This document shows positions 3,375-23,739 of a DNA stretch of 43,021 nucleotides, one piece after another. Made by a program: the position numbers and the translations under genes. Origin of the DNA: Anaerolineae bacterium (GTDB lineage Bacteria; Chloroflexota; Anaerolineae; JACIWR01); assembly GCA_014360845.1 (NCBI GenBank), contig JACIWR010000003.1, positions 1 to 43,021 on the forward strand, read 5' to 3'. The number at the start of each line of letters is the position of its first letter. Position 1 is the first letter of the stretch. Below the pieces are notes generated by a model. That model ran no database searches. It saw nothing but the letters and a program-made list of their open reading frames with translations, and had not been told where the DNA came from.

Positions 3375-3377
3375 GGT

Positions 3378-5327
3378 TTATTGACACTCCACATGTACAT
3401 AACCAAGGCGTACAGCCCCCTCTTGACCGTTAACATTGCGTACCGCCAGACGGCTTCCATCCGACAAGCGATATAGTCCCACTGTGACTTGATAGCGCCC
3501 CGGTGCCATGTCATCCGGCAACGATAGCACCCGCCGGTCGAGCACTTCCCGGCCCACCGCCCACACGCTGGTGGGAGCCAGGCCATTCTGCGGGATACCA
3601 TCATTCTGGGCCAGAGGCGGAGCGCCCGGCAGGCCCAGGTGGACAAAGGCGTTATACTCTTCGTCCAGGGGAGTCAGAGCACGCCAGCGCAGTGGTAAGG
3701 CCATCACTTCGCCAGGGTGGAGATGGGCATCCACCACAGGGTAGCGCAGCTCCACCCACCCACCAAAGTAAGCTGTCCCCTCCTCTGGCCCGACACCCGG
3801 CGTCTGGAAGTGCGGAGCCAGATACAAAGCCAGGTGGTGACGCCCGTACCAGTTGCTCTCCACCTTATACGCCTCGGCCTCCAGCCAGGAAGCAGAAAGG
3901 TTATGAGCATCTTCCGCCGCTATGCGATAGCTGAGCAGCCAGAGTCTGGGATGGGTAGCGAAGATGCTCTCCAACTCCGGGCCTACGGTTTGGGGGGTGA
4001 AGTAGGCCCGGTAGAAACTGAGCTGGTGCTGGGGATAGTAACTGAGCAGGTAACCCACCTGCCAGACGTAAACGTAGACGAGAGCATCGTCGGGTTGGGC
4101 CAAGGCGCTGAGATGAGCCATAGCCGGTCGCGGGTCTTCCAGTTCATCAACTGCTGCGGTGTAGACGCGCCCCAGCGCGGGAATCCACAGGACGATGACC
4201 ACGAGCAGCAGAACCAGCATGGCGGCCTTGGGCCCCCGCCGCCCCAGAGCCTCCAACCCACGAGCCATCAGCAAATAGAAAACCGGTCCCAAATACAGCA
4301 GAAAACGGGGGAAGAAAAAGGGGTAAGCTCTCTGCAAAAAATACGCAGCCGTCAGGGGTATGACGACCCAGGTGAGGAGAAAGGCCCGGCGCTCACCCGT
4401 CAAAACACCAACCACAGCCAAAGCCGTCATGGCACTGCTGGCTATCAAAACGCCGTAGCTCTCATCCCCTGTCCCCCAGCAGAACTCGCCCAGCACCCGG
4501 CTGAGATAGGCCCACCACGATAGGGCCTCCCCCCGCGACAAGCCCATCACCCCGCGCACGGTGGTGCCGAACACGATGAGCGTCCACGGCAGAAGAAGCA
4601 AAGCCACCGCTCCCACCGCCAGAGTCCATTGTCCCAGATGCGCGAGCGCACGATGGCGCACCGGGCTCCTGCGGATCAAGGACAAACCCTCGCATCCCAG
4701 CAGCCACACACCCTGCCACACCACCAGCAGACCCAGATAGTAATGCGCGCCGATGGCCGCCGCCGTACTCAGGACGTAAAGGACCCACCAGCAAATAGCC
4801 TCACTACGCGAAGGTTGCCCGCTGTTGAAATATCCCGTTCCTCGCCCCCAGGCGTAGACGGACAGCAATCCGCAAACCGTGGCCCACACATAACCCTTAG
4901 CTTCGCGGGAGTAGTACACCTGCATCGGCGACAGAGCGACGAGTAGCGCGACCAGCAAAGCCGTGCGCCTGCTCCCCAGCCAGCGACCCACCATCCCGGT
5001 GAGAGCCACCACCAACACCCCCAACCCCACCGAGAGAAAGCGCAGAGCAAAGGGAGAACTGCCGCCCAGTTCCTTCCACACCCCCAAGGCCAGGCGATAG
5101 ACCGGCGGGTCAGTGTCATTGGTGGTGCGCGTCTCGCTGACCAGGTCCGACAAGCTCTGGTGAGCAAAGTACACGCTATTGCCCTCATCCCACCATAAAG
5201 GACGGTGGTCCAGTTGCAACACCCGCAGGGCAAAGGCCATCAACAGAATGAGCAACAGGATCACCGTCCACCGGTTGTCTCGCTTCAACTCCACCCCCAC
5301 GGTCCACTCCCGCTCAGGCTTGGACAC
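3378..5327 (-). CDS. GT39/ArnT-like (PMT_2 type) membrane glycosyltransferase.
   Basis: 649-aa ORF with a GTG start. It has an N-terminal TM helix followed by LWWDEGNSVYFA (DE motif in the first loop), about 10 further TM helices, and a C-terminal soluble domain homologous to those of the 1..696 and 711..3374 products. Confidence 0.7.
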   Translation of the reverse strand: MSKPEREWTVGVELKRDNRWTVILLLILLMAFALRVLQLDHRPLWWDEGNSVYFAHQSLSDLVSETRTTNDTDPPVYRLALGVWKELGGSSPFALRFLSVGLGVLVVALTGMVGRWLGSRRTALLVALLVALSPMQVYYSREAKGYVWATVCGLLSVYAWGRGTGYFNSGQPSRSEAICWWVLYVLSTAAAIGAHYYLGLLVVWQGVWLLGCEGLSLIRRSPVRHRALAHLGQWTLAVGAVALLLLPWTLIVFGTTVRGVMGLSRGEALSWWAYLSRVLGEFCWGTGDESYGVLIASSAMTALAVVGVLTGERRAFLLTWVVIPLTAAYFLQRAYPFFFPRFLLYLGPVFYLLMARGLEALGRRGPKAAMLVLLLVVIVLWIPALGRVYTAAVDELEDPRPAMAHLSALAQPDDALVYVYVWQVGYLLSYYPQHQLSFYRAYFTPQTVGPELESIFATHPRLWLLSYRIAAEDAHNLSASWLEAEAYKVESNWYGRHHLALYLAPHFQTPGVGPEEGTAYFGGWVELRYPVVDAHLHPGEVMALPLRWRALTPLDEEYNAFVHLGLPGAPPLAQNDGIPQNGLAPTSVWAVGREVLDRRVLSLPDDMAPGRYQVTVGLYRLSDGSRLAVRNVNGQEGAVRLGYVHVECQ

Positions 5328-5706
5328 CGGCCCGAAGAGCCAGTGCCAAGCCGGTTTCTAACCGGGCGACGCCTGGTTCTTTCTACAGATGCTCATTTTA
5401 CCACATTCCTGAAGTTGTGGCAAGCGCGACAGCTTCCTCGGGCGTATTTCACTTTGGGGGCGCGTTGCTGCTGTGCCCTGGCCTCGGAGACCTCTCCCAT
5501 CCCCCCAGCCGTCGGCCGCGCTATGGAAAGCGCGGCTACCCCAACTTCGCTCAGGACGCAGCCCTTCGCCGGGCTCAGGACGCAGCAGCGGTCGGCCGCT
5601 ACGGGACAAACCTGCCCCACATAGCGGTGACAGCTCCCATCGGACCAGCACAACTGGCGGAGTTCAACTCCGCGAGATCAGGCAGTGAAGTGGAGCGGTG
5701 ATAGCT

Positions 5707-5725
5707 CCCTCGCCTGCGGCGAGGG
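5707..5725. terminator. GC-rich hairpin ccctcgcc-tgc-ggcgaggg placed 4 nt past the stop of the kinase gene. It has a T-run on the plus-strand side.
   Basis: 8-bp perfect stem seen directly. On the plus strand it is followed by tttctt. On the minus strand it directly follows the kinase stop codon TAA (5730-5732) but has no U tract. Confidence 0.45.
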
Positions 5726-5729
5726 TTTC

Positions 5730-8700
5730 TTACCCGGAACCGACCCCTTGAAGAGTCACGGCCGTCTTAAACCTTGCGTACTCCTTCTCGAGCTGGGCCA
5801 GTTTTTCCTCTGCGCCCGTCAGTTCTCCCTGTTGCCCCATGCATTCCAAATCAAGACATAAGGCCGAGAGTCTCGTGGCCCCCAAAGTGGCAGCGCTCCC
5901 TTTCAGCGTGTGGGCCGCGCGCCGCATCAGCTCCGGGTCCCCTTGTGCCACCGCCTGCCGCAACTCTGCTAAGAGCCGGACCGCGTCCATCTGGAAGGCT
6001 TCCACCAGCTCGGCTATAAACAGCGGAGCATCCTGCCCCATCACAGCCCGAAACTTTTCCAGCACCGTTGGATCTATGACGGCACCAGGTAAATCCGCTG
6101 GTGGCGCTGGCGATTCATGGGGCACTGCTGTCGGCCCGCGTCCGGATGCTTTCCCTCCCCGCGGCTGACACCGTTCCAGGGCCTGCACCAGCTCCTCTAC
6201 CCGCACCGGCTTGCTGATGTAGTCATCCATCCCCGCCTCCAGATACCGCTCCCGGTCCCCGGACAAGGCGTGTGCCGTCATGGCGATGATCCGCGGTCGC
6301 CCATTGCTCCCCCAAATCTCGTGAATCCGCCGCGTCGCCTCCACACCGTCCATCTCCGGCATCTGCACATCCATCAACACCACGTCATAGGACTGCCGCC
6401 CCAGCGCGTCCAGCACCTCCAGCCCATTGGCCGCCACGTCCGCCCGATACCCCAGCCGCTCCAGGATGCGCAGCGCCACCTTCTGGTTCACCACGTTGTC
6501 CTCCGCCAGCAAAATGCGCAGCGGATGCCGCTGCCCCAACTCCCGATCGAAACGCTCTTTCATCGCCCCCGCTCCCATCCGCACCGTCACCCCACCAAAC
6601 ACTCCCATCAAAACCTCATAAAACTGCCCCGCCTTCACCGGCTTCGTCATGTAGGCCGTGAACAGCCCTTCCTCACCTACCCGCTCCCCCAGAGAGCTCA
6701 ACATCACCAACGGCAACTCCGCTCCACCCCGCTCCTTCCGTATCTCCTGCGCCAAAGTCACCCCGTCCATCTCCGGCATGTGCATGTCCAGAATGCCTGC
6801 GTCGAAATGTTCGCCCCGTCGCACCCACTCCAGCGCCTGAACAGCGGAGCCCGTAGCGCGAGGCAACATCCCCCACGCCGCAACCTGTCGGGTGAGAATA
6901 ATGCGGTTCGTCTCGTGGTCGTCCACGATCAGCACCCGCTTGCCCGCCAGCACCGGCTGCGGCCCCCGCAGATAGACCTTCCGATGGCCCGGCACCGCCT
7001 CCGCCACAATGGTGAAGTGGAAAGTGGAACCCTTCCCTACCTCACTCTCCACCCACATCTCTCCACCCATCATCTCCGCCAACCGCTTGCTGATGGCCAA
7101 CCCCAAACCCGTGCCCCCGTACTTCCGCGTCGTCGAGGTGTCCACCTGACTGAAGGACTGGAACAAGCGCCCCATCCGCTCCGCCGGTATCCCGATCCCC
7201 GTGTCCCGCACCGCAAAATGCACCTCGTGCGCCTCCCCACCCAGAGCACGACTCTCCACCAACACCACTACCTCGCCCTTCTCCGTGAACTTCACCGCGT
7301 TGCTCAGCAGGTTCACCAGTATCTGCCGCACCCGCGTCGCATCACCCACTATCGCCCCAGGCACATCATCCTCGATGATGTACGCCAGCTCCAAACCCTT
7401 CTCCGCCGCCCCAGGCGCGATCAGGTCCAGGCTCTCCTCCACGCACAGCCGCACCTCGAAGGGCTGCTCCTCCAACTCCATCTTCCCCGCTTCGATCTTG
7501 GAAAAGTCCAGGATGTCGTTGATCAAGGCCAGCAAAGCCTCACCGCTGCGGCGGATGGTCTCCGCATACTCCGCCTGCTCCTCCGTCAACTCCGTATCCA
7601 GCAGCAGGCCCGTCATCCCTATCACCGCGTTCAACGGCGTCCGTATCTCGTGGCTCATATTGGCCAGAAAGGCCGACTTGGCCCGTGTCGCCTCTTCCGC
7701 CGCCTCATACAACCGCGCGTGTTCGATGACCACCGCCAACTGATCGGCCAGGCCGCCCAGCAGACGCACTTCCTCGTCCGCGATCACCGCTCGCTCGTCT
7801 CGCCGATAACCCACTTCCAGAACGCCTATCGTCTTCCCCCGCAGCACCAGGGGCACGAAAGCGCGTACCAAATCGGCGTGTCCCTCCCGCTCAAATATCT
7901 CGCGATCCAGGCGTTCATCCCAACCGTCAATGACCTCAATCCGTCCACTGCGGGCCACATCCATGAGGATGTCACCGACCAGATCATCCAGCGAGCGCAC
8001 CAGTCCTTCCAATCCCTGCGCCTGGCCCGCCGCCCGCACCACCCGGCTCTCGTTGGCGTCTTCGTCAATCAGGTGCAGGGCGATGTGGGTAAAGGCCATC
8101 TCCTGCGAAAGAGCGGCGATCAGCGCATCAAGCACCTGGTTCAAATCCAGGGTGCCGGAGATAGCGCGGCTCATTTTGTGCAAGACTTGCAACTCGCGTA
8201 CGCGAGCCTCAGCCTGTTGGCGGGCCTTCTGCGTCTCCTCAAACAGGCGGGAGCGCTCAATGAGCAAGGCCAGGCTGCTGGCCAGAGTGCTGAGAAGCTG
8301 TTGGTCATTTTCGTCGAAAGCATTGAGCTCAGGGCTCTCAACATTGAGCACGCCGATGACCTGGGAACCGACCATCAGCGGGACACAAAGCTCAGAACGT
8401 ATGTCTGGAATGCCCTCGTGATAACGGGGGTCCTCCCGCACATCGGGTACGAGGAGGGGCTTGCCATGCTGGGCTACCCAGCCGGTGATACCTTCACCCA
8501 AGGGCATGCGCAGGTTCTGGACCGCCTCCAGGGGATAGCCGACGCTGGCCTTCATCTGCAGCCAACCGCTTTCCCGGTCCAGCAGCATGAGGACCACGTG
8601 GGTACCCTCCAATTCAGCGGCCAGGGCCTCCGCCGCGGCCTGCAACGTCTCGTCCAGGCTGACTCCAAAAGCCGCAGCCATGCTCACCTCGTTGAGCAAC

Positions 8701-11700
8701 TGGAATTCGCGCATCCGGCGCTGGGTCTCCTCCAGCAAGCGAGCCTGCTCGATGCGCATGGCCAGGCTGGTGGCCAAGGTGCTGAGCAACCGCTGGTCGT
8801 CCTCTGTGAAGGCGTTGAACTGCGAGCTCTCGACGTTAACCGTGCCGATCACCCGCGAGCCGACGAGCAGAGGCACGCACAGCTCGGACACGGTGCTCCC
8901 GATCAAGCCCAGATAGCGGGGGTCCAGGCGCACATCCGGCACCAGCACGGGCTCACCATGGCGCACTACCCAGCCGGTGATGCCCTGGCTGATGGGCCAC
9001 TCCACCTCCGGGATTTCATCCGGGAACTCACCGGCGGTGGCGCAGGCTTTCTGCCGCAAGACGCCCTTCTCCGCATCCAGCAACGCAATCCCCACGTGAT
9101 CGCATTTCAGCCAATTGAGGATGGCCTCCGCAGAGGCCTGCAAAGCCTCACTCAGGGTAACCCCGGAGACCGCGGCCATGCTGACATCGTTGAGCACCTG
9201 CAGCTCACGCACCCGTTGGCGTGTCTCCTCGAAAAGTCGGGCGTTCTCAATGGCCATGGCCGCCTGCTGACCAAAAGCCCGGGCCAACCCGGCCGTCTCG
9301 GAAGAGTAAAAGGCGGGCTCGCCCTTGTCAATAGTGAGCAGGCCCACGACTTCGTTTTTGCTCAACAGCGGTACCCCGAGCCAGGAGCAAACCCAGCTCG
9401 TGCCGGCCAAACCGCGGAATCTGCTGTCTTGTTGGGCATCGGCGAGGATGAGAGGTCGCCGGGTGCGCTCCAGTTCCCGGAAAAGCTCATCTTCCTGCGT
9501 GAGGACCTCGAGGCCGATGACCGCCTCTGGATTCTCGAAGCCCCTTGCCGCGGAGATGTGCATCACATCCCCTTCCCGTAGCCACAGGGCAGCGGTGTCA
9601 TAGGGGATCACCCGCTCCAGTTGCTCCAGGATCAGGCGCAACACCGCCTCCAGGTCCAGGGTGGAGCTCACCGCTCGACCGATCTCGGATAGAGCTTCCA
9701 ACTGAGTGGCGCGCCGCCGCGCCTCCTCGAAGAGCCGGGCGTTCTCCACTGCCACGCCGACCTGCTGACCAATGGCAACCAACAGGTCCCACTCGCCCTC
9801 AGAAACGGGATGGGGGGCGGTATCCAACAAGCCCAGGATGCCCAACACGCGGTCCTTGTGGATGATAGGCGTGCCCACGTACGAGAGAATGCCCACCTCC
9901 AGCAACGCACTCACGTCCAGTGGCGCGCCGGCCCGCAGGTCTGCCACTGAGAGAGAGGCCCCTTGTTGATACACATAATCGCACAAAGTGCCCCCCAGGC
10001 CCTCCGCCTCCAGATGATCGAGCAGGGCCACGGGCAAGCCAGCGTAACTGGAAAGCACCAACTCGCCGCTGCGTTCATCAATCAAGCTGATTAGCCCACC
10101 GGCGAAACCCAGGGCATGAATTATGCGGGAGAGGGCTTCATCGAGCAAATCCTGCAACTCCAGCGAACCGGACAGGGCCTGAGCCAGGGCGTTCAAGGTG
10201 GCCAGTTCCAGATTGCGGCGCTGCAAATACTCCTCGGCCTGCTTACGCTCGGTGATGTCCTCTCCTGAGCCGAGAGTGCCCACGATACGCCCCTCATTGT
10301 CCCTCAGCACGGTGTTATGCCAGGCGATGATTCGTTCCTCGCCCTCGCGGGTCAGAACCGGGTTTTCAAAATATTCGGCAGATTCGATCTCCCCGGCAAT
10401 CAGCTTCTGGAAAACACCCTTCACCTCATCGCGCACCCGGTCCGGCAAGAAATTCTCGAACCAGTTCTTGCCCACAATCTCATCCTGCTCATAGCCCAAT
10501 ATCTCGCATCCGCGCTTGTTGATGAGCGTCACTTCTCCCGCGGTATTGAGGGCTACGAACATAACCCCGGCTATGTCCAGATACTGCTGGGCCCTATCCC
10601 GCTCCGCGCGTAGAGCCTCCTCCGCTTGCTTGCGCTCGGTAATATCGCGCATTATCCCTATGGCGTGCCATTTGCCTCGCAGGTTCACCGCCGAGAGCGA
10701 CAACTCCAGAGGTATCTCTACTCCGTCCTTCCTGATGGCCGGCAGTTCCAGGGTTTTGCCCACGGCCTTACCTTGTCCCGTGAGCCGGAATCTCTCAAAA
10801 GCTTCCAAATGCATGGCGAGAAGTCGCTCGGGAGCCAGGAGTTGATGCATATTCTTGCCCATTACTTCCGCTGCCGTATAGCCGAAGATCTTCTCCGCGG
10901 CCTCGTTCCAAAAAGTGATGTTGCCATCGTGATCTATCATAACGATGCCATCTTGAGCCGAAGAGGTGATAGAGCGGAGAGTCTCCTCCCTTTCACGTAG
11001 GGCTTCTTCCATTCTCTTGCGCTCGGTGATGTCCAGTTGAGCACACACGCCCATAATGACCCGGCCCTGCGCATCGCGGAGGGGGTATTCATTGACCAGC
11101 ACGTGACAGGTGGAGCCATCGGCCCGCACATCCTCGTACTCCAAATCCTGGAAGGACTGACCGGCAAAGACGGCGGCTATGTTCTTGCGGGTGACCTCAG
11201 CGTTCTCCTCTTTGACCATGAGCTCATACATGGTCTTGCCCACGGCTTCCTCGGCAGTCCACCCGTATAGCTCCTCGCAAGCGCGATTCCAGTGCAAAAT
11301 TCTGCCCTCGCGATCGAAGGTCCAGCAGCAGGCCGGTATGCCGTCGAAAAGGGTGCGGAAGTGCTCTTCGCGTTCCTGCAGGGCCCTCTCAGCCTGCTTG
11401 CGCTCGGTAATATCGGTGATAACGGCTAGGACCCCTTCAAAGTGGCCCTCGGCGTCCGTCAGCGGTGAGGCTGAGACAATGACGTTCACCTGAGAGCCGT
11501 CCTTGCGATAGAGCACAGTCTCATAGTGTTCCCTCTCCCCCTTCTGCCTGCGCTGAGTCAACTGGCGATAACGGGCGAACTCCTCAGGGTCTGTCAACTG
11601 CGACAGGTTCATGCCCACCAGTTCCTGCGGGGTGTATCCCAGCATCTGGGCAAAAGCCGTATTGGCGAACGTGATGTTCTCCTCCGGGTCCACAATGCCG

Positions 11701-12188
11701 ATACCGGTGAACACGGCCTCGGCCACAGCATTGTAAAGGGTATTGCTCTTCCACAAGGCGACATCGCGGTCCACCCGCTCCGTGACGTCCTCGATCACGG
11801 TGATGGTGCCGATGATGCGCCCATCCTCAACCAGCGGAGCAATGCGTGCGCTCTGAGCCATCAGCTTCCGGTCGGCGCTGAAATCCGAGGACATCGGCAG
11901 AAGATAGCGATGGAAGAGTTGCGACAACACCCGCACCTGCCCCTTCAGGGCATCGCGATAATAGCGGTCCAACCCACGGCTGACGAGCTCCGGGTATACC
12001 TCCAGCAAATTGCGCCCCACGACCTCGCTCGCCCGGTAGCCCGTGTGGACCTCCAGCCAGCGATTCCAGCCGCGGATGTTCAGCTCGGCATCCGTAATCA
12101 GCAAACCCTGGTCAGCAAAATCGTTCAACCATCGCAGTGTTGCTGTTGCGTAATCCGTCATAGCCCTTACCTCTACCATCCTGTTCAT
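5730..12188 (-). CDS. Hybrid sensor histidine kinase with 5 PAS, 5 GAF, HisKA, HATPase_c, 2 receiver and Hpt domains.
   Basis: 2152 aa. PAS modules each end in a DITERK(Q/R)AEEAL-like junction. GAF modules end in ENARL(F/Y)EE. H-box is [15 protein letters not shown]-box is [21 protein letters not shown]. Receivers are [21 protein letters not shown] and [22 protein letters not shown]. Hpt motif is [14 protein letters not shown]. The ATG overlaps the CheC stop (ATGA). Confidence 0.95.
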
Positions 12189-12826
12189 GAACTACCTGTA
12201 CCGGCCGGCTCTCCCTCCTGAGTGCTGGCCCAATTCTCAATAGCCTGCATCAAACGCTCCAGCGAGGTGACCCCCAAGACGATGATAAGATACCCCGCCA
12301 CCGCGCTCTCACTCAAATGAAAATCCATACGAACAACCAGCGCATAGCACAATTCTTCTTCGCCAATCACCAGCGAAGAGAGCAGAGTCTCCAAATCCTC
12401 CTGATGCACGCGCGGCACCGAAAAGGACACCGTCACTTGGAGCAGGTTGCCAAACATGCCCAGGCAAGCGTTGAGCACAATGTTGCCCACCTCGGCCAGC
12501 ACTTCCCGCCCCGAGGCCGCCAGCGGTTGTACGACCACACGCCCCTGCAGCAATAGCTGCACCAGGTGAGCCGCACTTTCGTAATCCAGCACCAACAGCG
12601 CATCGCCAGCCATAGGGCCGGTGAAAATCTGATGCACCGTGGCCAATTCATCGCAGGTCAAACCACACAAGGCATCCCGCATCCCATCTATGGGACGTAT
12701 GTCCACCTGGGGCGTACCAAGAATCACTCGCTGTCCGGTCAAATCTGAAAGCGAGGCCGCAGTGCGCCCGAAGGCGATATTGACCAGTTCCGTCAAGGCG
12801 TCCTTTTGTCGTTCAGTTATCAGCAT
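12185..12826 (-). CDS. cheC: CheC-family CheY-P phosphatase.
   Basis: Both CheC active-site motifs (D/S-x3-E-x2-N-x22-P) can be counted exactly: D-ALT-E-LV-N-(22 aa)-P and E-VLA-E-VG-N-(22 aa)-P. I place the start at the internal ATG (MLITERQKD), overlapping the cheY stop by 14 nt. The listed ORF start at 12880 lies inside cheY. Confidence 0.8.
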
Positions 12827-13190
12827 CTTCCACCTCGCTGAGTATACTGCTGACCACGTTCCGCACCTGCTCACCGGCAAAGGGCTTGGTGATGTAGCCC
12901 CTCGCGCCAGCGGCCTCCACCATGGCCCGGGTCGAGTTCTGGATGTCCGCCGTGGCGATGATCACCCGCGCTTCTTGATCCATCTCGCGCAGTTTTCTCA
13001 GGACCTCCAGGCCATACATCCCGCTCATGGTCAAGTCCAGCAGAACCAAATCAGGCTGGTGCAGAGCATACAACTCCAGCGCCGTCAGGCCCTCGGGCGC
13101 TTCAATGATTTGGTGTCCCAACGGTTCCAACGCCTGGCGCAACATGCGCCGCGATAAACTGGAATCATCTACAATCAGGATTTTAGCCAC
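12813..13190 (-). CDS. cheY: Single-domain CheY-like response regulator.
   Basis: 125 aa. Motifs KILIVDDS, DLVLLDLTMSGMYG and ATADI..YITKPF. GTG start preceded by GGGAGGAG. Confidence 0.9.
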   Translation of the reverse strand: MAKILIVDDSSLSRRMLRQALEPLGHQIIEAPEGLTALELYALHQPDLVLLDLTMSGMYGLEVLRKLREMDQEARVIIATADIQNSTRAMVEAAGARGYITKPFAGEQVRNVVSSILSEVEDADN

Positions 13191-13244
13191 ACCACTCCTC
13201 CCATAAGTTCAATTAAGCGGCCTGGTCAGCCGCCGAACCAACCG

Positions 13245-14051
13245 TTATCGCATTCGCTCATCTACGTCCTCCTCAGCCGGGCTCGGGTCATCGCGCCCGC
13301 GCTCCGGAGGCCGCAAGAATTTAATCTGAAGGTCCCGAAAGCAGACGCTGGACCCATCCCAGGCGCGCAATCCGACCCCGCCATGGGTGTATTCGCTGTG
13401 CTGCGCCTGGAGTACGACCTCGCCATCCACATAGGCGGTGAAAGTGTTGCCCTCTACGCGGAGGCGGATTTCCCGCTCCGCACCGTGCCATTCATAGTCG
13501 TTCGCCGCCCAGGCCCTGGCAAAAGGAGACTGTTCATTACCATTCACGATCCGCCGATACAGGAAAGCCCCTTTGCCGTAGCCGGGATCGTACTGGAAGA
13601 CATAGGCGTTGGCCCTCTCGTAATTCGTAGCTCGGAAGTAAACTCCGTAGCCGTTACCCTGGGTCAGCAGAGCTTTGAAGGTAATCTCGTAGTCGGTCCA
13701 GTTCTCCGCACCGTAGAAGCTGCGCTGTTCCCCTCCCGGTCCGGTGCAGTAACTATCCCCCTCCACACGCCACTTCTTTCCGGCGACTACCTGCCATCCA
13801 CTCCAATCAGCGGGCTGCGGAGTGGGCGTCGGGGTCGGGGTAGGGGTGAGGCTAACCGCCGTGGCTTGAGAACCGGGCGAGGCCCACTGACTGGCGGGTA
13901 ATTCCCCCTGCAATGCACTGTAAACATGTCCAATGCTTGGCCCCACGGCATAGGCCGTCCCGCCCACCACCACCCCCACCAGGAGGATGATCAGCGCGTA
14001 TTCCACCAGGCCCTGACCCGACTGCGATTGCCATTCTGTCCCTTTCATCAT
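13245..14051 (-). CDS. Flp-type (type IVb) prepilin-like N-terminus fused through a PT linker to a DUF1080/LamG-like jelly-roll domain.
   Basis: N-terminus is SGQGLVEYALIILLVGVVVGG (G/xxxxEY Flp motif plus hydrophobic helix). Linker is TPTPTPTPTPQP. The C-terminal ~185 aa read W..W.V..G..W.VEGD..NWTDYEI.F...NGYGVYFRA..VFQYDP..GVGLRAW..V.F.DLQI. ATG at 14051 is preceded by AAAGGAG. The listed start at 14060 is GTG. Confidence 0.7.
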   Translation of the reverse strand: MMKGTEWQSQSGQGLVEYALIILLVGVVVGGTAYAVGPSIGHVYSALQGELPASQWASPGSQATAVSLTPTPTPTPTPQPADWSGWQVVAGKKWRVEGDSYCTGPGGEQRSFYGAENWTDYEITFKALLTQGNGYGVYFRATNYERANAYVFQYDPGYGKGAFLYRRIVNGNEQSPFARAWAANDYEWHGAEREIRLRVEGNTFTAYVDGEVVLQAQHSEYTHGGVGLRAWDGSSVCFRDLQIKFLRPPERGRDDPSPAEEDVDERMR

Positions 14052-14132
14052 CGGTTGCACTCCTTTGACTCCAAAGGCGACGCACCTCCACCAGGTACGT
14101 GATGCGTACAGGGGTACATCGTCTTCCCTTCA

Positions 14133-15041
14133 TCAGTGGCAAACCGCCGGTCGCATCGTGGCGGTAAACGAGGTATTCACGTGATGACCTCTCAGGATAT
14201 GCTTCGCCAACGCCGGGTTACTCCTGAGGTCAAGCACCAGCCCGGCCTGATCGCTCTCCTCGAAAGCCCGCAGTATCGAGGAGTTTATGTCATTTCTGAT
14301 CCGCACCTGGCTGACATTGAGAGCCGGCCCCGTCATGGTGGCCTGCCGGTCACTAATCCGCAGGGTGTTAAAACTCACTTTTCCCACCAGGACCGGGTCC
14401 TTCCCCAGAGACGCGATCTGCAAGGACACGGGGGTGGGGTCCACCTCAAACTCGAAGCCGTCGGCGGATTCGGTGTAACGTCCGGTGAGACGGATAGCTC
14501 CCAAACCGATGAAATGCCAGGTCATGTAACCGCCCCTCCTCACCAGCGGGTCTCGTGGGCCATAATCCCCAGAGTTCACGTAGGCCAAACCGAATAGCAG
14601 CGCCTCGCTGAACCCGTCTCCATCTCGATCCAGCCAAAGCAGTCGCCCATCAAAACTGAAGCCAGAGCACTGCGTCACCGAGGTAGCGGTGGGCGCGGGC
14701 GTGGGCGTCGGTGTAGCAGTGGGTGGCAAAGGGGGCACCGTGGGTATAATCACCGGCGTGCCGGCCGGGGGCAACGGGGGCAGGGTAGGTGTCGGCGTAG
14801 GCGTGGCCGGGCTGAGCGTCGGCGTAGCCGTCGGCGTCGGACTGGCCATAGCGACCGGCGTGACCTCCTCCGCTGCGGGCGCGATCACCCCGGAGAGGGC
14901 AGCGTGAGCTTCGCTGAACACCCCTCCCACCTGCGGCCCCATGGCCACCAACACGCCACTGGTGACCACGCTGACCAGCAGCAGCATCAATGCGACTTCC
15001 ACCACCCCCTGGCCTTTTTCACACATCCACTTCCTCTGCAT
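14133..15041 (-). CDS. Second Flp-like prepilin N-terminus with a long PT-rich linker and a ~190-aa C-terminal domain of unknown function.
   Basis: N-terminus is EKGQGVVEVALMLLLVSVVTSGVLVAMG. The linker is about 60 aa of P/T/A-rich sequence. The C-terminal domain has no motif I recognise. Confidence 0.6.
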   Translation of the reverse strand: MQRKWMCEKGQGVVEVALMLLLVSVVTSGVLVAMGPQVGGVFSEAHAALSGVIAPAAEEVTPVAMASPTPTATPTLSPATPTPTPTLPPLPPAGTPVIIPTVPPLPPTATPTPTPAPTATSVTQCSGFSFDGRLLWLDRDGDGFSEALLFGLAYVNSGDYGPRDPLVRRGGYMTWHFIGLGAIRLTGRYTESADGFEFEVDPTPVSLQIASLGKDPVLVGKVSFNTLRISDRQATMTGPALNVSQVRIRNDINSSILRAFEESDQAGLVLDLRSNPALAKHILRGHHVNTSFTATMRPAVCH

Positions 15042-15060
15042 TATCCTCTCACCCCCTATG

Positions 15061-16290
15061 CTATGGACAAGCTTGTAGACCCTCTTGAGCGCTTTGCAGC
15101 GTGGGGTCCAGCACCAAAGCCTGTTGGAACATCAATTTCGCCTGCTCGCACTGTCCCATCTGGACCTGGCTCCACCCCAGTCCAGCATAGGCCAAGGCGC
15201 TTTCGGGATCGAAGTATATGGCCTCCTGGAACAAGGTCGCGGCCTCTGCATAACGCTCCAGATGATAGTATGACCAGCCCAGGAGAGGGTAGGTGATGCG
15301 CTGCACCGGGCTGTTGCGGGTGAGGGCCAGGGCTTCGTTAAACTGCGCCACCGCCTGATCGTAGTCCCCGGCCTGGTAGAAACACTGCCCCAGGTAAGCG
15401 TAGAGCAACGCGTCGTCCGGCTGACGTAACAACAAACTCCGAAATTGATACGAAGCCTGATCGTAATTGCCCAGGGCGTAATACGTCAGACCCAGATACT
15501 CCTGGACCTGGGGGTCATCCGGCTTCATCTCCAGAGCCTTGCGCAGGGGCTGTAGGGCCTCTTCCGGATAGCCCGCCTCGTAGTAAGCCCGCCCCATGAA
15601 CTCAAGAGAGTCGGCATCGGTCGGATTGAGGGTCACGGCCTGCTTCAGCAGCGAGATGGCCGTCTCGTAATCCTTCTGCCAGAACTTGACCGTCCCCAGA
15701 TAGCCGTAAGCCTCGGCCAGGTTGGGGTCCAGTTCGAGGGCCTTCTGGAGGTATGCGGCGGATTCCGCATATTGGCGGAGATAATAATAGGCCTTGCCCA
15801 GCCCCAGATAAGCGTCGCCGCGCTGCGGGTCCAGCTCCACCGCGCGGCGGAAATAAGGGATGGCCGCTGCATCTTGTTCCAGATGATAATAGCACCACCC
15901 AATACGGGTTTGCACCAGCGGTTGATTCGGCATCAGCTCCGCCGCCCGGAGGTAGGCGGCCAGCGCCGTCTCGTACTGCTGATGATAGTAAGCCTGCTCA
16001 CCCTGGCGGAAGTAGTAGTTACCGTCCTTGCGGAAACGGGTCACGTAGATCAGCGTGCCGACCATTACCACCGCTACTCCCAGAGCGGCCAAGAGAATCC
16101 TTCGCAGCGTCCTCTGGGATAGACGAACTCCTCTCTTCTTCCCCGGTACGACTGCCTTGCCCGGTGAGGCCTCGTACACTGTCTCTGACGAAGCCTGCTC
16201 CACCTGCTGCACTGCTGTCAGACGAGCCAAACAGTTGGGACACACCACCTCATCGCCTTTGAGTGCCGCACCACATTCTGGACAATTCAT
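15061..16290 (-). CDS. Zinc-ribbon, single TM helix and TPR-repeat protein, possibly TadD-like.
   Basis: N-terminus MNCPECGAALKGDEVVCPNCLARL. TM helix ILLAALGVAVVMVGTLIYV. About 9 TPR-like 34-aa repeats (A..Y...L.L.P....A...LG..Y). AAGGAG lies 9 nt upstream of the ATG. Confidence 0.75.
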   Translation of the reverse strand: MNCPECGAALKGDEVVCPNCLARLTAVQQVEQASSETVYEASPGKAVVPGKKRGVRLSQRTLRRILLAALGVAVVMVGTLIYVTRFRKDGNYYFRQGEQAYYHQQYETALAAYLRAAELMPNQPLVQTRIGWCYYHLEQDAAAIPYFRRAVELDPQRGDAYLGLGKAYYYLRQYAESAAYLQKALELDPNLAEAYGYLGTVKFWQKDYETAISLLKQAVTLNPTDADSLEFMGRAYYEAGYPEEALQPLRKALEMKPDDPQVQEYLGLTYYALGNYDQASYQFRSLLLRQPDDALLYAYLGQCFYQAGDYDQAVAQFNEALALTRNSPVQRITYPLLGWSYYHLERYAEAATLFQEAIYFDPESALAYAGLGWSQVQMGQCEQAKLMFQQALVLDPTLQSAQEGLQACP

Positions 16291-16315
16291 AGTAGAATCT
16301 CCTTCATCCTGACCA

Positions 16316-17503
16316 TTATCGAACGGATTTAGCTACCCGCTTCGGAGAGAGCCGACCGCTGAGCTGCTGAGCCAATTGCTGCAACACCTGCGCTGCCGGA
16401 GTCTGGGGCTGACCTATCACCAGCGGCACTCCGCGGTTGATAGCCTCCACAAAGGCCACCCGTTCATGGGGAATCACCGCAGTCAGAGGCATGTGCAAAG
16501 CGGCCTCGATGTTCTTCTGCGGCAGTCCGCCCTGAGCGAAAGGCCAATTCAAGACCGCTACCGTCTTCTGGGGCGGATATTCCAGCGCCTGGAAGACGTC
16601 CAGGGCCGCCGTGGTCACTTTCAGACCAGCGATCTCCGGCGTCAACAGCAACACGATCACATCAGATTGATCCAGCGCGGTCAGTGTGACCTCATCGAAA
16701 CGAGAAGGCGTATCTACGACAATGTACCGATACTTGGGTCGCAGCATGTCCAGTATGGTATCCACCAGCGTAGGCGTGATTTTGTCAGCCAGCTCTGGCG
16801 CAGGAGGAGCCGGCAACACGCATACCCCGGAATCATGGCGGACGAAAGCCCCCTCCACCAGGGCATCATCTATCACATCGGCCCCCCGGTCTCCCAGGTC
16901 GGCCAGGCTGTGCTTAGGCCGCAAATCCAGCATCAGCGCGCAGTGCCCAGACTCCAAAGCCAGGTCCAACAAAGGCACGTCGTCCTGCGCCAATTGGGCC
17001 AGAGCCACAGCCAGATTCACCGCCACCGAAGTGACCCCTACCCCGCCCCGCAGACTGAATACGGAGATCACTTTGGCCGGTGAGGCAACTCCCGTCTGCT
17101 CGGCAGCGGACTGTACGGCCTTCATGCGCGCCAACAGGACTTTGATCCGCATCTCCAGTTCTGTGGGGTCCACTGGCTTCACCAGGTAATCGTCCGCGCC
17201 GGCCTGGAAACCATCCACCTTGGCGCTGACCCCGCCCCTGGAGGTGAGCATAATCACCGGAGTGTGGATTGTGGCGGGATTCTGGCGCAACCAGCGGCAG
17301 AATTGATACCCGTCCAGCCCCGGCATGACCACATCGGAGATGACCAGATCGGGGAAGACTGCATCTGGTGCACTCAACTTGGCCATGGCTTCCTCCGCAC
17401 TGAAAGCCACGTCCACCTGGAACCCGGAGGCCATCAACCGGCTCTCTATCATCTTAGCCGAGAACTTGCTATCATCAACGACAAGAATCCGCGGCTTTCC
17501 CAT
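16316..17503 (-). CDS. Response-regulator receiver fused to a CpaE/TadZ-type (MinD/ParA-like) ATPase domain.
   Basis: Receiver motifs PRILVVDDSKF, LVISDVVMPGLDG and YLVKP. These are followed by ISVFSLRGGVGVTSVAVNLA (deviant Walker A) and VVDTP. The ATG at 17503 is preceded by AGGAGGAAGAGG. The listed start at 17527 adds 8 aa. Confidence 0.8.
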   Translation of the reverse strand: MGKPRILVVDDSKFSAKMIESRLMASGFQVDVAFSAEEAMAKLSAPDAVFPDLVISDVVMPGLDGYQFCRWLRQNPATIHTPVIMLTSRGGVSAKVDGFQAGADDYLVKPVDPTELEMRIKVLLARMKAVQSAAEQTGVASPAKVISVFSLRGGVGVTSVAVNLAVALAQLAQDDVPLLDLALESGHCALMLDLRPKHSLADLGDRGADVIDDALVEGAFVRHDSGVCVLPAPPAPELADKITPTLVDTILDMLRPKYRYIVVDTPSRFDEVTLTALDQSDVIVLLLTPEIAGLKVTTAALDVFQALEYPPQKTVAVLNWPFAQGGLPQKNIEAALHMPLTAVIPHERVAFVEAINRGVPLVIGQPQTPAAQVLQQLAQQLSGRLSPKRVAKSVR

Positions 17504-17643
17504 ACACCTCTTCCTCCTGCCCCCCATACCACGCAGTTTAATATTAACGTTCGTAACAGATGTAGTCCTTGCAATATTATAGTGGAAAACCCCGTCCTTT
17601 TGGGTAAAAGCCTCGTAAAAGGCTGTAAATTCGTCGTAAAATA

Positions 17644-17672
17644 GTAAAGGCGCAGCAATGCTGCGCCTTTAC
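17644..17672 (-). terminator. Perfect 13-bp palindromic hairpin, terminator-like on the minus strand.
   Basis: Sequence is gtaaaggcgcagc-aat-gctgcgcctttac. On the minus strand it is followed by tattttacgacgaattt. Confidence 0.4.
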
Positions 17673-17761
17673 TTCGTGTCCAGACAGGCTGGAAGGAAAA
17701 CCTGTCTCTTCTTTTCGGGGATGGCTCAGAATCGGTTAACACTTCAATCAGGCAGCATACT

Positions 17762-17936
17762 GTCAACGAATGGCGGAACGAATAAACGAATAACCATCAC
17801 CACGGTCTATTCGTTTATTCGTATCTTCTCAATAATTGGGGGTAGGGGCAGGTCTTGCACCTGCCCGCCTGGGCGACCGCAAGGGTTCGCCCCTACATTT
17901 TGAGAAGATACGTTTATTCGTTGGATATTCGTTGAC
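17762..17936. repeat. Composite nested palindromic element (REP-like).
   Basis: Outer arms are gtcaacgaatggcggaacgaataaacg and cgtttattcgttggatattcgttgac. Inner arms are tatcttctcaa and ttgagaagata. The GC-rich core at 17842-17896 is gtaggggc..ggcaggt-cttgc-acctgcc..gcccctac. Confidence 0.7.
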
Positions 17937-17973
17937 AGAGAAGCCGCCCGAGCCAAGAAACGCATAAATTGTG

Positions 17974-18022
17974 GTAGGGGCGAACGCAAGGGATCGTCCC
18001 GGCGGGCTGATTTGCCCGCTGG
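17974..18022. repeat. Second, oppositely oriented copy of the GC-rich core.
   Basis: It begins with gtaggggcgaac, identical to the reverse complement of the end of the 17842-17896 core, followed by related cggcgggc..gcccgc hairpin sequence. Confidence 0.55.
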
Positions 18023-18152
18023 ATCTGGGCACCGGGCGTAGCTCTTGAGAATTTCTCAGGGCCTCAAAAGTGTAAACCTATTTCCGCCGGGATCATGAAC
18101 CTTCCCTCTCTCCGGATAGGTTTTTAGAAGACCCCTTCGCCCGGTACCCGGC

Positions 18153-18428
18153 CTACCACGTGGTTCGACGCTGCAACGAGCGATAGGCGAAGTAACCCGA
18201 TACACAACCCAGGATCAGGTTCTGAGCCGGCCAGAAGCAACACCACACGCCCAGGGTGAAAATGCTCAGCGCTATCCCGATGGCCCAATCCAGCAGCCAG
18301 TAAGTCACCAACAGCACCAAACCCCAGCCCACTTGTCCGGCGTAAATCCAGCCCAAGCCTAGAAAACCAAAGACCCCCCCAATAACCTCCAACAGCAACG
18401 CTAAAAACGGGTCCCGATGTGTGCGCAT
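18153..18428 (-). CDS. Small integral membrane protein with 3 predicted TM helices.
   Basis: 91 aa, strongly hydrophobic, with GFLGLGWIYAG. Its start overlaps the stop of the upstream gene (TAATG). Confidence 0.6.
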   Translation of the reverse strand: MRTHRDPFLALLLEVIGGVFGFLGLGWIYAGQVGWGLVLLVTYWLLDWAIGIALSIFTLGVWCCFWPAQNLILGCVSGYFAYRSLQRRTTW

Positions 18429-18925
18429 TAACTTATCCTTTCCCTTTCCAAGAAATCAGCTACCAGCCAGTAGCGAAAATCACGTCCATTATACGTCTCA
18501 TAAGCCGCGTAGAGACCATAGACCAGTCCGGCCAGCGGTATAGCCACCAGCAACAAAGTGAACGCCAACGCTGGTGGAATCAGACAGAGGCCGACGATGA
18601 CTACCGCCAGAAGGCCCACCGCCGCCCACGCCACCCCCACCACCGCCCCGACCAACACAGTCACCGCCAACAAGGCAATCTGAAAGACCAGGGCCTGCAA
18701 AGCCTGGAAAGCCACCCAAGACGAGCGTTCCTTCTCGTAGAGCCAGATGGCCAAGGCCACCACAATACCTCCCAGGCCATTGGTGAAAAGGCCCAGCAAG
18801 ATACCGGCGTGAGCCAGAGCGGCCATCGTCAGCTCATCCTGGGTTAACTCCGCGAACTCCTCCCCAGATGTTTCCTCAGAAGGTTGAGCCATTGGTTCTT
18901 CCACGGTCATAATGCACCTCCTCAT
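18428..18925 (-). CDS. Membrane protein, DUF4870-like.
   Basis: 165 aa. An acidic N-terminus is followed by MAALAHAGILLGLF.. and 3-4 TM helices, ending YNGRDFRYWLVADFL. Confidence 0.6.
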   Translation of the reverse strand: MRRCIMTVEEPMAQPSEETSGEEFAELTQDELTMAALAHAGILLGLFTNGLGGIVVALAIWLYEKERSSWVAFQALQALVFQIALLAVTVLVGAVVGVAWAAVGLLAVVIVGLCLIPPALAFTLLLVAIPLAGLVYGLYAAYETYNGRDFRYWLVADFLERERIS

Positions 18926-19004
18926 TAATTCCTCGATATAGCCACCTGACAGTTTGAAGATGCCATTGCAGAAAGGTGCTCCGCGCCACCCTTGGGACCG
19001 TAGT

Positions 19005-19115
19005 CATCCTGAGCGGAGTGAGTCCCGAAGCGGCAGCAGAGGGACGAACGTAGTCGAAGGATGACGAAAGAGCGAGTCCCGCATCCTTCGACTCCGCTGC
19101 GCTCCGCTCAGGATG
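19005..19115. repeat. Nested imperfect palindrome (REP-like).
   Basis: Outer arms are catcctgagcggag (19005-19018) and ctccgctcaggatg (19102-19115). Inner arms are gtcgaaggatg (19053-19063) and catccttcgac (19082-19092). Confidence 0.7.
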
Positions 19116-19571
19116 CTCCCTCGTGGCCGCGAGGCTACTTCGGGGCCTTCTGCACCCTGCGCAGCGACACTTGGGCAAAACTGTCGGGTAGCTAGATTCC
19201 TCATAAACGTTTTCAAGCCGTGCAGTTAGCCCCAGGTCGCGCGCTGAGAGGGTGAAGCCCTCTTCGACGGGCTCAGGATATGCTTCAGGGCTAGACCGAG
19301 GTCGGGGCCACGCCTTGCCGCATCCTGGAACTCCCGCGCGATGAGAGATGGCATTGTAGAACGGTTACCGTTGTGATATACGTAGTTGGTAGTCGAAAAG
19401 TTGCATACCTGCAAGCATTCTTCGACCCCGCTGCGCCCCACTCGTGGGTGCCCCAAAAGTAAAATGGAGCGGCCAGTGCCACACAGTTGCCAGCAGAACA
19501 GAAATGCTATATACTTGATGCCACGGCGCCAAAGGCGCTCCCAAACCAAATCTAGACAAGGAGATGACCGC

Positions 19572-23037: not shown

Positions 23038-23088
23038 GAAGGCAATGGGGAACGAGGTAACGGGTAAAGGGTGATGAGGAGTGAGAAG

Positions 23089-23739
23089 ATGGGTAAACAC
23101 TGGGAAATCAGTCGCACCGGCCCATTGGGCGTGTTCCTGGCGCTGCTGGGCTATTGGGGGGCCTGGGTAGACCATAAGACCGCGGCGTTGGTGCTCAGCG
23201 GCCTGGACATGGGGGAGTACGTCAAGTTTCTACCGGAGGTGCGCGAGGGGAGCGTGGTCGTGCTGCGAGAGCTTTTCTACCTGCCGCCGCTGGCCGCGGC
23301 GCTCTGCCTGGCTCTACTGGTCGGCTGGCTGTGGCCACGATATTCGCTCACAGCGCGCGTGCTCATGCTGGGCCTGGCCGCGGGGCTCTGTCTCATCGTC
23401 CTGCCCCCTTACCCCTTCGTGCTGCACGCTCTCTCCTCAGCGGAGTTCCGGGGGCAGTTCATCATGTCCGTGTTGTGCTTATTGGGCGTTGCCGCGGCTC
23501 CACTCTACCGCCGCCTGAGGGACCGGACGGCCCAATTGCTGCTGGCGATGCTCGCCGGCCTGGGCACGCTCCCCGCTATAGCCCAGTTCTGCGCCATCCG
23601 CCCGGCCCTGGAGCGGGCTTACGGCTGGCCGTTGCAAATCGGCTGGGGCCTGTGGGTGATGGTGGTGGGCTTTGCTTTCGTCATCGTCGCCACCATAAAG
23701 GGTGAGGTGCGACGCACTTCAGAAGCGCGTCGCACCTAA
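23089..23739 (+). CDS. Polytopic membrane protein of unknown function.
   Basis: About 6 hydrophobic helices. The ATG at 23089 is preceded by AGGAG. It sits where ABC ATPase genes would be expected. Its 3' end overlaps the convergent hdrA stop by 4 nt. Confidence 0.55.
   Translation: MGKHWEISRTGPLGVFLALLGYWGAWVDHKTAALVLSGLDMGEYVKFLPEVREGSVVVLRELFYLPPLAAALCLALLVGWLWPRYSLTARVLMLGLAAGLCLIVLPPYPFVLHALSSAEFRGQFIMSVLCLLGVAAAPLYRRLRDRTAQLLLAMLAGLGTLPAIAQFCAIRPALERAYGWPLQIGWGLWVMVVGFAFVIVATIKGEVRRTSEARRT

Follow-up and report, generated by a model that had tools for sequence, protein, structure and literature searches.

Can the protein that positions a Tad pilus machine be the direct target of a phosphorelay? 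TadZ/CpaE is thought to place Tad machines through a degenerate, unphosphorylated receiver, and where the regulation of Tad pili is known, it acts mostly on transcription, or through cyclic di-GMP or polarity landmarks. The question is raised by a locus in an Anaerolineae bacterium (contig JACIWR010000003.1 of assembly GCA_014360845.1). The entire contig of 43,021 nucleotides (nt), which we call the window, was analyzed; it originates in metagenomes of oil fields and of oil production. A sequence-only reading of this DNA had proposed that a Tad-like fragment is co-transcribed with a CheY/CheC pair and a giant hybrid kinase, whose histidine phosphotransfer (Hpt) domain would pass phosphate to CheY, to the receiver of a CpaE-like protein, or to both, with CheC tuning the relay. 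We find that the CpaE-like protein, judged by its sequence, is TadZ-like in architecture and motif yet a paralogue, not an orthologue, of the CpaE found in tad loci. Its receiver is intact, and Hpt-type phosphate donors recur beside its relatives.

Seven co-directional genes

The locus comprises the following genes, where REC denotes a receiver domain.

16316-17503 (-): REC-TadZ/CpaE-like protein (REC-ATPase), 395 amino acids (aa) from ATG 17503
15061-16290 (-): zinc ribbon-transmembrane-TPR protein, 409 aa
14133-15041 (-): FlpA, modular Flp-type prepilin, 302 aa
13245-14051 (-): FlpB, modular Flp-type prepilin, 268 aa, database start ATG 14051
12813-13190 (-): CheY-like single-domain receiver, 125 aa
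12185-12826 (-): CheC-type phosphatase, 213 aa
5730-12188 (-): cytoplasmic hybrid sensor kinase, 2152 aa

The open reading frames, all on the minus strand, bear out the seven co-directional genes of the sequence-only reading, together with the overlaps of 14 nt between cheY and cheC and of 4 nt (ATGA) between cheC and the kinase gene. The intergenic gaps are 25, 19, 81 and 54 nt. The spacing is as tight as had been claimed, but the upper limit of the earlier range of 19-72 nt holds only if FlpB starts at GTG 14060; from ATG 14051 the gap is 81 nt. Every non-overlapping start is preceded by a Shine-Dalgarno-like motif. For the REC-ATPase we take the start to be ATG 17503, which has the ribosome-binding sequence GGAGGA in front of it and is the start found in orthologues; the in-frame ATG 17527 is less likely.

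Absences from the window were checked by Pfam scans of the other large open reading frames and by tblastn probes. These find no CpaF, TadB/TadC or CpaB, and no CheA, CheW, MCP, CheR, CheB or CheD, in agreement with the earlier claim that the Tad core and CheA/CheW/MCP are missing here. Nor does the window hold a prepilin peptidase, or a flagellar or archaellar switch.

A TadZ-like protein with an intact receiver

The REC-ATPase matches Response_reg in Pfam with 92 bits, together with AAA_31/ParA/CBP_BcsQ. Its receiver is canonical, with the DD pair, the phospho-acceptor aspartate (D57 counted from ATG 17503), the threonine and the lysine all present. In the MinD/ParA-fold domain the Walker A motif is RGGVGVTS. 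MinD/ParA proteins carry KGGxGK[ST] at this position. Among seven family members that we aligned, the form [RK]GG[VA]GV[TS] is invariant, and the P-loop lysine is absent from all of them. The motif of the window protein fits the consensus K/RGGXGXS/T given for TadZ, although the receiver of TadZ has been described as an 'atypical receiver domain' (bioRxiv 10.64898/2026.07.08.737194) and that of the window protein is not degenerate. TadZ is described as binding ATP, having low ATPase activity and acting as a recruitment hub (PMC6668835). Because the P-loop lysine is absent, an ATP-hydrolysis cycle of the ParC/PpfA/MinD type is unlikely, and the REC-ATPase is probably a nucleotide-binding, non-hydrolysing hub protein of MinD fold.

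A true tad locus of Anaerolineae (L022), recovered through its Flp motif, has the order Flp-Flp-CpaB-CpaE-CpaF-TadB-TadC. Its REC-CpaE of 410 aa has the same REC plus ATPase architecture and length as the window protein, and the two align over their full length with 28% identity (E 3e-45). We placed 45 sequences in a maximum-likelihood tree. Ten CpaE sequences form a tad-linked clade (support 98/94), and all ten are encoded beside CpaF/TadB/TadC. Sister to this is a clade of 31 sequences that includes the window protein (support 100/97). Identity to the window protein is 42-95% inside its own clade, compared with 25-30% to tad-type proteins. The window has no T2SSE or T2SSF domain, as CpaF/TadA and TadB/TadC would provide. 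The description 'Tad-like fragment' is overturned by the tree: the genes are not a piece of a tad locus but a separate paralogue module.

The window protein resembles TadZ of A. actinomycetemcomitans and E. rectale and CpaE of C. crescentus in joining a receiver fold to a MinD/ParA fold, in its atypical Walker A motif, and in being followed by Flp-type genes. It differs from them in its canonical receiver, in lacking CpaF/TadB/TadC beside it, in belonging to a separate clade, and in having Hpt-bearing genes downstream. When its ATPase domain was searched against the PDB, the best hit was 3ea0, deposited only as 'ParA family' and presumably a TadZ ATPase domain; the next was archaeal MinD.

Two further observations concern this family. 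The receivers of CpaE from L022 (11191-12423) and from other tad-clade loci are also canonical (DD, D, S/T, K), with the Walker A form KGGSGCT. Since these receivers too are canonical, phospho-control of TadZ may be general in the Anaerolineae class. On a short metagenome contig (L032, 2379-4162) two REC-ATPase genes of the paralogue type apparently lie in tandem.

Hpt-type donors beside the paralogue

We obtained gene neighbourhoods for ten lineages of the paralogue clade, and sought Tad motor genes within 10 kb. CpaF/TadB/TadC were found in none of the ten, compared with all ten tad-clade loci. Directly downstream of the paralogue, co-directional signalling genes are present in eight of the ten lineages, and they are of several kinds. 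In the window they are the CheY-like receiver, CheC and the hybrid kinase. In L001/L003 an orthologous hybrid histidine kinase (82% identical to that of the window in the kinase core) precedes a CHASE4-HAMP-PAS protein. L025 has REC, a HAMP histidine kinase, a GAF hybrid histidine kinase (76% core identity to the window kinase), REC and Hpt. In both L026 and L028 the set is Hpt, REC, REC and GGDEF, with a PAS kinase that exceeds 1800 aa. The paralogue is followed by the genes CheR-MCP-CheW-CheY-CheA-CheD in L005, and by CheR-MCP-CheW-GAF-MCP-CheY-CheB-CheA-MCP in L027. In L110 (9685-13408) a paralogue with 74% identity leads straight to a PAS/GAF sensor that runs off the end of the contig.

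An Hpt-type donor, be it the Hpt of a hybrid kinase, a stand-alone Hpt or the P1 domain of CheA, is present in all seven of the linked loci for which the downstream sequence is complete. A kinase core, Hpt or CheA is found in none of the ten tad-clade loci. This is the pattern expected if the receiver of the paralogue is the target, and it provides the main support for the model put forward by the sequence-only reading. The kinase core stays 76-82% identical downstream of paralogues that are themselves only 57-78% identical.

The exact order of the seven genes, whose synteny had been proposed as a check, is not conserved. In the window and in L001/L003, L004, L005, L026 and L028, the next genes after the paralogue are those for the zinc ribbon-TPR protein and Flp fusions, a block that is absent from L110 and L027. 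In L110 the upstream synteny with the window is kept, and TPR, FlpA, FlpB, CheY and CheC are missing. CheY-CheC occur only in the window, where DNA alignment with L001 reveals them as an insertion, accompanied by about 280 extra N-terminal residues of the kinase. L002 is of the same species as L001 (99.99% identity over 6,984 nt), and its sequence (at 6464) diverges from that of L001 (at 8586) at a breakpoint 28 nt past the stop codon of the paralogue. In L002 the TPR-Flp-kinase block lies behind unrelated genes (MTTB, an aminotransferase) and there is no REC-ATPase. Either the strain has undergone a rearrangement or the assembly is chimeric. In other Anaerolineae, tad loci have a GC content of 41-56%; that of the window is 60%.

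In L005, a region without a called gene between CheY and CheA contains, at 11038-11592, a sequence that resembles CheB and has 53% identity to the probe, perhaps a cheB gene that was overlooked or has decayed.

The kinase, the CheY-like receiver and CheC

Pfam finds in the kinase five PAS and five GAF stretches, HisKA, HATPase_c, two Response_reg domains and Hpt, as the earlier reading of the 2152-aa protein had it. The residues required for a phosphorelay are all intact: the H box SHEIRTP (His1513), the N, G1 and G2 boxes, Asp1801 of the first receiver, Asp1940 of the second, and the HTLKGS motif of Hpt (His2093). There is no convincing transmembrane segment in the kinase. The closest similarities in NCBIfam are to TorS, BarA and ArcB, all under their cut-offs. 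The HisKA-HATPase-REC-Hpt layout of these proteins is shared, with the conserved residues all kept, but the window kinase differs from them in its two tandem receivers, its ten cytoplasmic PAS/GAF domains, and its lack of a membrane anchor.

The single-domain receiver (Response_reg, 92 bits) has the DD pair, Asp52, Thr80 and Lys102, with an aromatic residue at the position three before the lysine. Its identity to CheY from the L005 che operon is no more than 38%, and its best NCBIfam match is CheY_Halo, at 82.8 bits against a cut-off of 200. The name CheY requires the context of a chemosensory cluster (PMC13747009). As the window has no chemosensory core alongside, the receiver is not strictly CheY; the earlier label is right as to an intact receiver of this type, and we call the protein CheY-like.

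CheC passes its Pfam family (PF04509, 33.4 against 22 bits) and, narrowly, CheX (PF13690, 28.2 against 27). Its two active-site motifs read DALTELVN-x22-P and EVLAEVGN-x22-P, the first residue of the second being glutamate where the pattern [D/S]xxxExxN has D or S. The two ExxN-x22-P motifs, the length of about 210 aa and the translational coupling to a CheY-like receiver are as in CheC/CheX/FliY. The protein is unlike those in having no CheD, CheA, MCP or switch with it, in having a hybrid kinase as its partner, and in scoring 60 bits where the CheC equivalog NF041093 of NCBIfam demands 250. We considered an archaellum or F1-chemosensory link for the CheC/CheY pair (after PMC12488501 and PMC13747009) and set it aside, as the window contains no archaellum genes and no CheA.

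Flp-type prepilins carrying extra domains

FlpA and FlpB both begin with a short leader, a processing motif and a hydrophobic helix, reading GQG\VVEVALMLLLV and GQG\LVEYALIILLV, respectively, where the stroke marks the predicted cleavage site. The G and E of the G\xxxxE(Y) motif are invariant in orthologues, and the AlphaFold2 model of FlpB places the helix at residues 14-49. The N-terminal 45-50 residues of FlpA and FlpB align end to end with complete Anaerolineae Flp pilins of 51-57 aa. Over the N-terminal 45 residues, FlpA is 56% and FlpB 48% identical to a 51-aa Flp of a tad locus, which itself passes Flp_Fap (PF04964) with 35.4 against 32.2 bits. Thus 'two Flp-like proteins' was an apt description of the N-termini, but the whole proteins, of 302 and 268 aa, are modular and not small pilins. 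The mature proteins would be five to six times the size of an Flp pilin, which is about 40-80 aa, owing to a linker and globular domains. They are best described as modular Flp pilins, going by their sequences.

In FlpA a Pro/Thr linker of about 70 aa, nearly invariant among orthologues, leads to a C-terminal domain of about 180 aa that is rich in beta structure and has an invariant pair of cysteines at its flanks. No fold match was found for FlpA, whose AlphaFold2 model is poor (pLDDT 52). A deep HMMER search of 1.84 billion representatives returned only five relatives of the C-terminal domain, and three of the four that we inspected have an Flp N-terminus. In FlpB the Pro/Thr linker is followed by a DUF1080 domain (PF06439, 40.5 against 26.8 bits, E 4e-10). 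The AlphaFold2 model has a mean pLDDT of 83.5, rising to 95-98 in this domain. The top Foldseek match is CBM66 of B. subtilis (4b1m/4azz; E 3e-12, target TM-score 0.84, root-mean-square deviation 2.2 Å over 163 columns). The C-terminal domain of FlpB is therefore modelled with a CBM66-like lectin fold, and is probably a glycan-binding module. Fusions of Flp to DUF1080 make up at least 210 homologous clusters in Chloroflexota. The operon has no gene for a major short Flp.

The grafting of modules onto pilins has precedents. In S. sanguinis the modular pilins PilB and PilC carry a vWA and a lectin module, respectively (PMC8179133, PMC9934059), and variable C-terminal modules customise Tad pili through the minor tip pilins TadG and KilN (PMC12075869). 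FlpB is comparable to PilC and to the Tad tips in that a globular module is grafted onto a pilin moiety; the ConA-like/CBM66-like lectin fold of this module makes it a counterpart of the lectin of PilC. Rather than a type IVa pilin or a minor pilin of TadE/TadG type, the pilin moiety of FlpA and FlpB is a complete Flp, of the type of the major pilin of type IVc pili, with a long Pro/Thr linker. Beside the paralogue, other modules are also found on Flp N-termini, namely a lamin-tail domain (LTD) in L026 (12427-13092) and an M23 peptidase in L025 (5625-6197). DUF1080 occurs in addition behind prepilin N-termini of the type IVa N_methyl style (PF07963).

The remaining protein of the set has a zinc ribbon (a weak Pfam match) placed on the cytoplasmic side, a single transmembrane helix at about residues 61-86, and about eight TPR repeats. 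Of all components of the module it is the most conserved: identity is 83-89% among close relatives, and 47% with L026/L028. No family-specific cut-off of NCBIfam is reached (PilW 105.6 against 154 bits; Tgl 70.7 against 225).

Transcription and flanking DNA

Expression in situ is seen in a run labelled metatranscriptomic from sample X2, the sample from which the window also derives; the RNA contigs are 100% identical to it. These are unstranded Logan contigs, and contamination with DNA is possible. The contig at 16057-16649 bridges the junction between the TadZ-like and TPR genes. Two others lie at 14269-15036 and 12910-14243, the latter bridging the junctions between FlpA, FlpB and CheY, and that at 12753-12939 spans the cheY/cheC overlap. 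The 5' third of the kinase gene is represented by 10189-12145. Coverage by RNA is uneven, falling to zero at 6306-9611 within the 3' two-thirds of the kinase gene, whereas depth in a DNA run is even, at 8-10x. Parts of the kinase and FlpA genes of a related strain are also present in a second RNA run, which belongs to another study. In a consensus scan, none of the four intergenic gaps shows a terminator-like site. The earlier claim of co-transcription is upheld to the extent that the genes behave as one unit, given the tight or overlapping junctions, the lack of intergenic terminators and the bridging contigs. We regard this as good evidence for a single seven-gene transcript, though not decisive because the contigs are unstranded and could contain DNA.

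Three features lie around the genes.

5707-5725 (strand not assigned): GC-rich hairpin of 8 pairs, starting 5 nt past the kinase stop codon
5423-5395: promoter-like site for the next gene downstream of the kinase, from the consensus scan
17504-18152 (-): non-coding leader or spacer upstream of the operon, from sequence features and RNA contigs

The hairpin is likely to be the 3' boundary of the transcription unit. At the other end, a hexamer resembling TATAAT precedes the REC-ATPase start by about 70 nt. The spacer further contains a hairpin with a T-run at about 17640-17680 and an inverted repeat (17863-17896/17974-18007). RNA contigs at 17429-17715 and 17948-18228 cover parts of it, and none is found at 18294-18650. 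Since these contigs lie in the spacer, transcription perhaps begins far upstream, and the operon may have a leader of several hundred nt that starts near 18.23-18.29 kb and reads through the hairpin and T-run.

Three short intergenic segments (17797-17938, 19004-19145 and about 5204-5754) exceed their flanks 100-1500 times in summed contig depth, in both the DNA run and the RNA run of the source sample. They flank the operon on both sides, and the inverted repeat lies in the first. Many different sequences adjoin these segments, an indication of dispersed repeats, present in high copy number, at which the assembly breaks. The palindrome GTAGGGGCGAAC was considered as such a dispersed repeat and rejected; it has two copies in the window, and its count with two mismatches allowed is at chance level.

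Downstream of the kinase, the region 711-5327 (-) encodes a 649-aa protein that weakly resembles a PMT_2 membrane glycosyltransferase, with a score short of the Pfam cut-off, and another of 887 aa that matches nothing in Pfam. The che operon of L005 is likewise followed by a PMT_2 gene. Such genes may have to do with O-glycosylation of the Flp fusions, on their nearly invariant Pro/Thr linkers. At 23071-23739 (+) there is a conserved polytopic membrane protein of 222 aa, with no Pfam hit and no resemblance to prepilin peptidases, which also occurs next to the Opp transporter in L001, L004 and L110. The remaining genes of the window encode an Opp-type transporter, Hdr-like proteins, 2-oxoacid:ferredoxin oxidoreductase, succinyl-CoA synthetase, an ECF sigma factor and similar functions. 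Rfam finds no RNA families in the window.

A possible mechanism and its alternatives

From these data we infer the following scheme. The soluble kinase would sense intracellular cues through its five PAS and five GAF domains and autophosphorylate on His1513, and the phosphate would pass by way of one or both of its own receivers to His2093 of Hpt. From there both co-encoded receivers would be phosphorylated, that of the TadZ paralogue as the output and the CheY-like protein. Phosphorylation of the paralogue might set its dimerisation, its location, or both. Together with the membrane-bound zinc ribbon-TPR protein, the phosphorylated paralogue would then fix where and when FlpA and FlpB are processed and deployed, perhaps into filaments. 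The phosphate of the CheY-like protein would be drained by the co-translated CheC, so that the pair would serve as a phosphate sink or as a reset of the relay. As neither prepilin peptidase nor the CpaF/TadB/TadC motor lies in the operon, both would have to be supplied by a canonical tad locus elsewhere in the genome. Tad systems occur in about a third of the genomes of Chloroflexota and are without secretins there (PMC12488501), so that supply of the Tad core in trans is plausible and the missing secretin is to be expected.

We consider the chances evenly balanced that a phosphorelay-controlled TadZ paralogue directs the deployment of modular Flp subunits by a Tad machine acting in trans. The phosphorelay acting on the TadZ-like receiver, as proposed by the sequence-only reading, finds partial support from gene context: the intact residues and the Hpt-bearing genes downstream in relatives argue in favour, while the lack of conserved gene order does not. 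Several other observations weigh against the scheme. The paralogue never adjoins Tad motor genes in our sample; in L108 and L109 it is an orphan among housekeeping genes, and L027 and L110 have signalling genes without Flp or TPR genes, and because of these loci its role is perhaps broader than pilus control. No counterpart of CheY-CheC was found in 110 related loci. The structure of E. rectale TadZ is not among the PDB sequence hits of the ATPase domain, the N-terminal 60-aa pieces of FlpA and FlpB give no match to Flp_Fap even at E<=1, and the RNA run is unstranded with possible admixture of DNA.

Some of these facts would be accommodated if the REC-MinD-fold protein served Anaerolineae generally, as a positioning or scaffold protein under phospho-regulation and without a special tie to Tad pili, comparable to MinD4 in Haloferax or to ParC/PpfA at chemoreceptor arrays. 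Its cargo would be another envelope machine, the division site or signalling complexes, and the TPR and Flp genes would be lineage-specific passengers. The family is large and often stands alone, as in L108 and L109, signalling genes occur without Flp/TPR in L027 and L110, and no member has a Tad motor gene near it. The best NCBIfam match of the ATPase domain is to archaeal MinD (90 bits, under the cut-off), and archaeal MinD ranks high in the PDB search. ParA-like ATPases of che operons are known to position arrays (PMC11407121), and MinD-like proteins have been discussed for motility machines of Chloroflexota (PMC12488501). However, the Walker A motif of every member lacks the P-loop lysine and is the TadZ variant, the nearest identified relatives are the CpaE proteins of true tad loci, and the next genes encode Flp-type prepilins in at least six lineages. 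Moreover, the window, L001/L003, L025 and L026 have no MCP or CheA, and hence no array to position. We consider a general scaffold unlikely. A general role in array positioning of the ParC/PpfA kind we rejected, given the absent P-loop lysine and the lack of MCP/CheA in most loci.

A different doubt concerns the pilins. The Flp N-termini might act only as class III signals and anchors, with FlpA and FlpB as lectin-like surface proteins, anchored in the membrane or forming a short pseudopilus in the style of the archaeal bindosome; the REC-ATPase and TPR protein would then organise surface display, and there would be no long Tad pili. The size of the mature proteins is in accord with this, and so are the Pro/Thr linkers, long enough perhaps to carry domains through the wall, the variety of modules on Flp N-termini in the class (DUF1080, LTD and Peptidase_M23, with DUF1080 also on an N_methyl prepilin) and the missing gene for a major short Flp. 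But the entire Flp pilin has been kept, with 48-56% identity up to the last residue of the 51-aa Flp, and the retention of the whole moiety and not just the signal argues for packing as a filament subunit. Modular pilins are incorporated in filaments elsewhere (PMC8179133, PMC9934059), tips of the TadG/KilN kind are known (PMC12075869), and display would still need a prepilin peptidase and probably the platform too. Display alone seems to us quite improbable. We find it very improbable that the kinase-CheY-CheC genes and the Tad-like genes are mere neighbours, with the kinase signalling to regulators elsewhere. The CheY-CheC insertion is lineage-specific, giant kinases of the PAS/GAF kind abound in Chloroflexota and are promiscuous there, and the TPR-Flp-kinase block of L002 lies behind unrelated genes without a REC-ATPase; yet an orthologous kinase core is kept at 76-82% identity downstream of paralogues that are 57-78% identical, different signalling systems (che operons, or stand-alone Hpt and REC sets) take the same position elsewhere, the tad-clade CpaE genes have no signalling genes next to them, and the tight or overlapping junctions are bridged by RNA contigs.

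Relation to known systems and significance

All components of the operon belong to known families. Their combination can be compared with the Pil-Chp system, in which PilG/PilH act on type IVa pili, and with Wsp, in which a CheA-like kinase acts on the REC-GGDEF protein WspR. As in those systems, a Che-type or Hpt pathway is encoded with a receiver that is fused to, or would act on, an output in surface behaviour, and in L005 and L027 full che operons lie directly after the REC-TadZ paralogue. The difference lies in the output, which here would be a TadZ-like pseudo-ATPase, and in the window a PAS/GAF hybrid kinase stands in for the Che core, with only the CheY-like protein and CheC kept. In the literature that we searched we found no description of a phospho-controlled TadZ/CpaE, of a TadZ-like gene at the head of a che operon or Hpt relay, of a TadZ-like pseudo-ATPase as an output, or of Flp pilins fused to CBM/DUF1080 modules.

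The phosphorelay-controlled TadZ paralogue might have a wider meaning. We would venture only tentatively, since we think it rather doubtful, that chemosensory and Hpt pathways of Anaerolineae use a TadZ-like pseudo-ATPase as a direct phosphorylated output, gating in space or time a second Tad hub, made up of the REC-TadZ paralogue and the zinc ribbon-TPR protein, that loads lectin-tipped modular Flp subunits. If true, this would be a form of 'sensory adhesion', or Tad-based taxis, in filamentous monoderm bacteria, and an analogue of Pil-Chp assembled from different parts.

The analysis exposes a large undescribed family of Flp pilins with grafted modules (CBM66-like lectin, LTD, M23 peptidase and orphan domains), and extends the idea of the modular pilin to type IVc pili. 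Such pilins could explain why Anaerolineae are adhesive in digesters and in oil reservoirs. There is a clade of TadZ paralogues with intact receivers that repeatedly neighbour Hpt-type donors, whether hybrid kinases or CheA, which suggests that signalling directly controls the place or time at which adhesive pilus subunits are deployed. At this locus one can test directly whether a type IV filament hub is under post-translational control by signals, in a phylum that is environmentally dominant and has been poorly studied.

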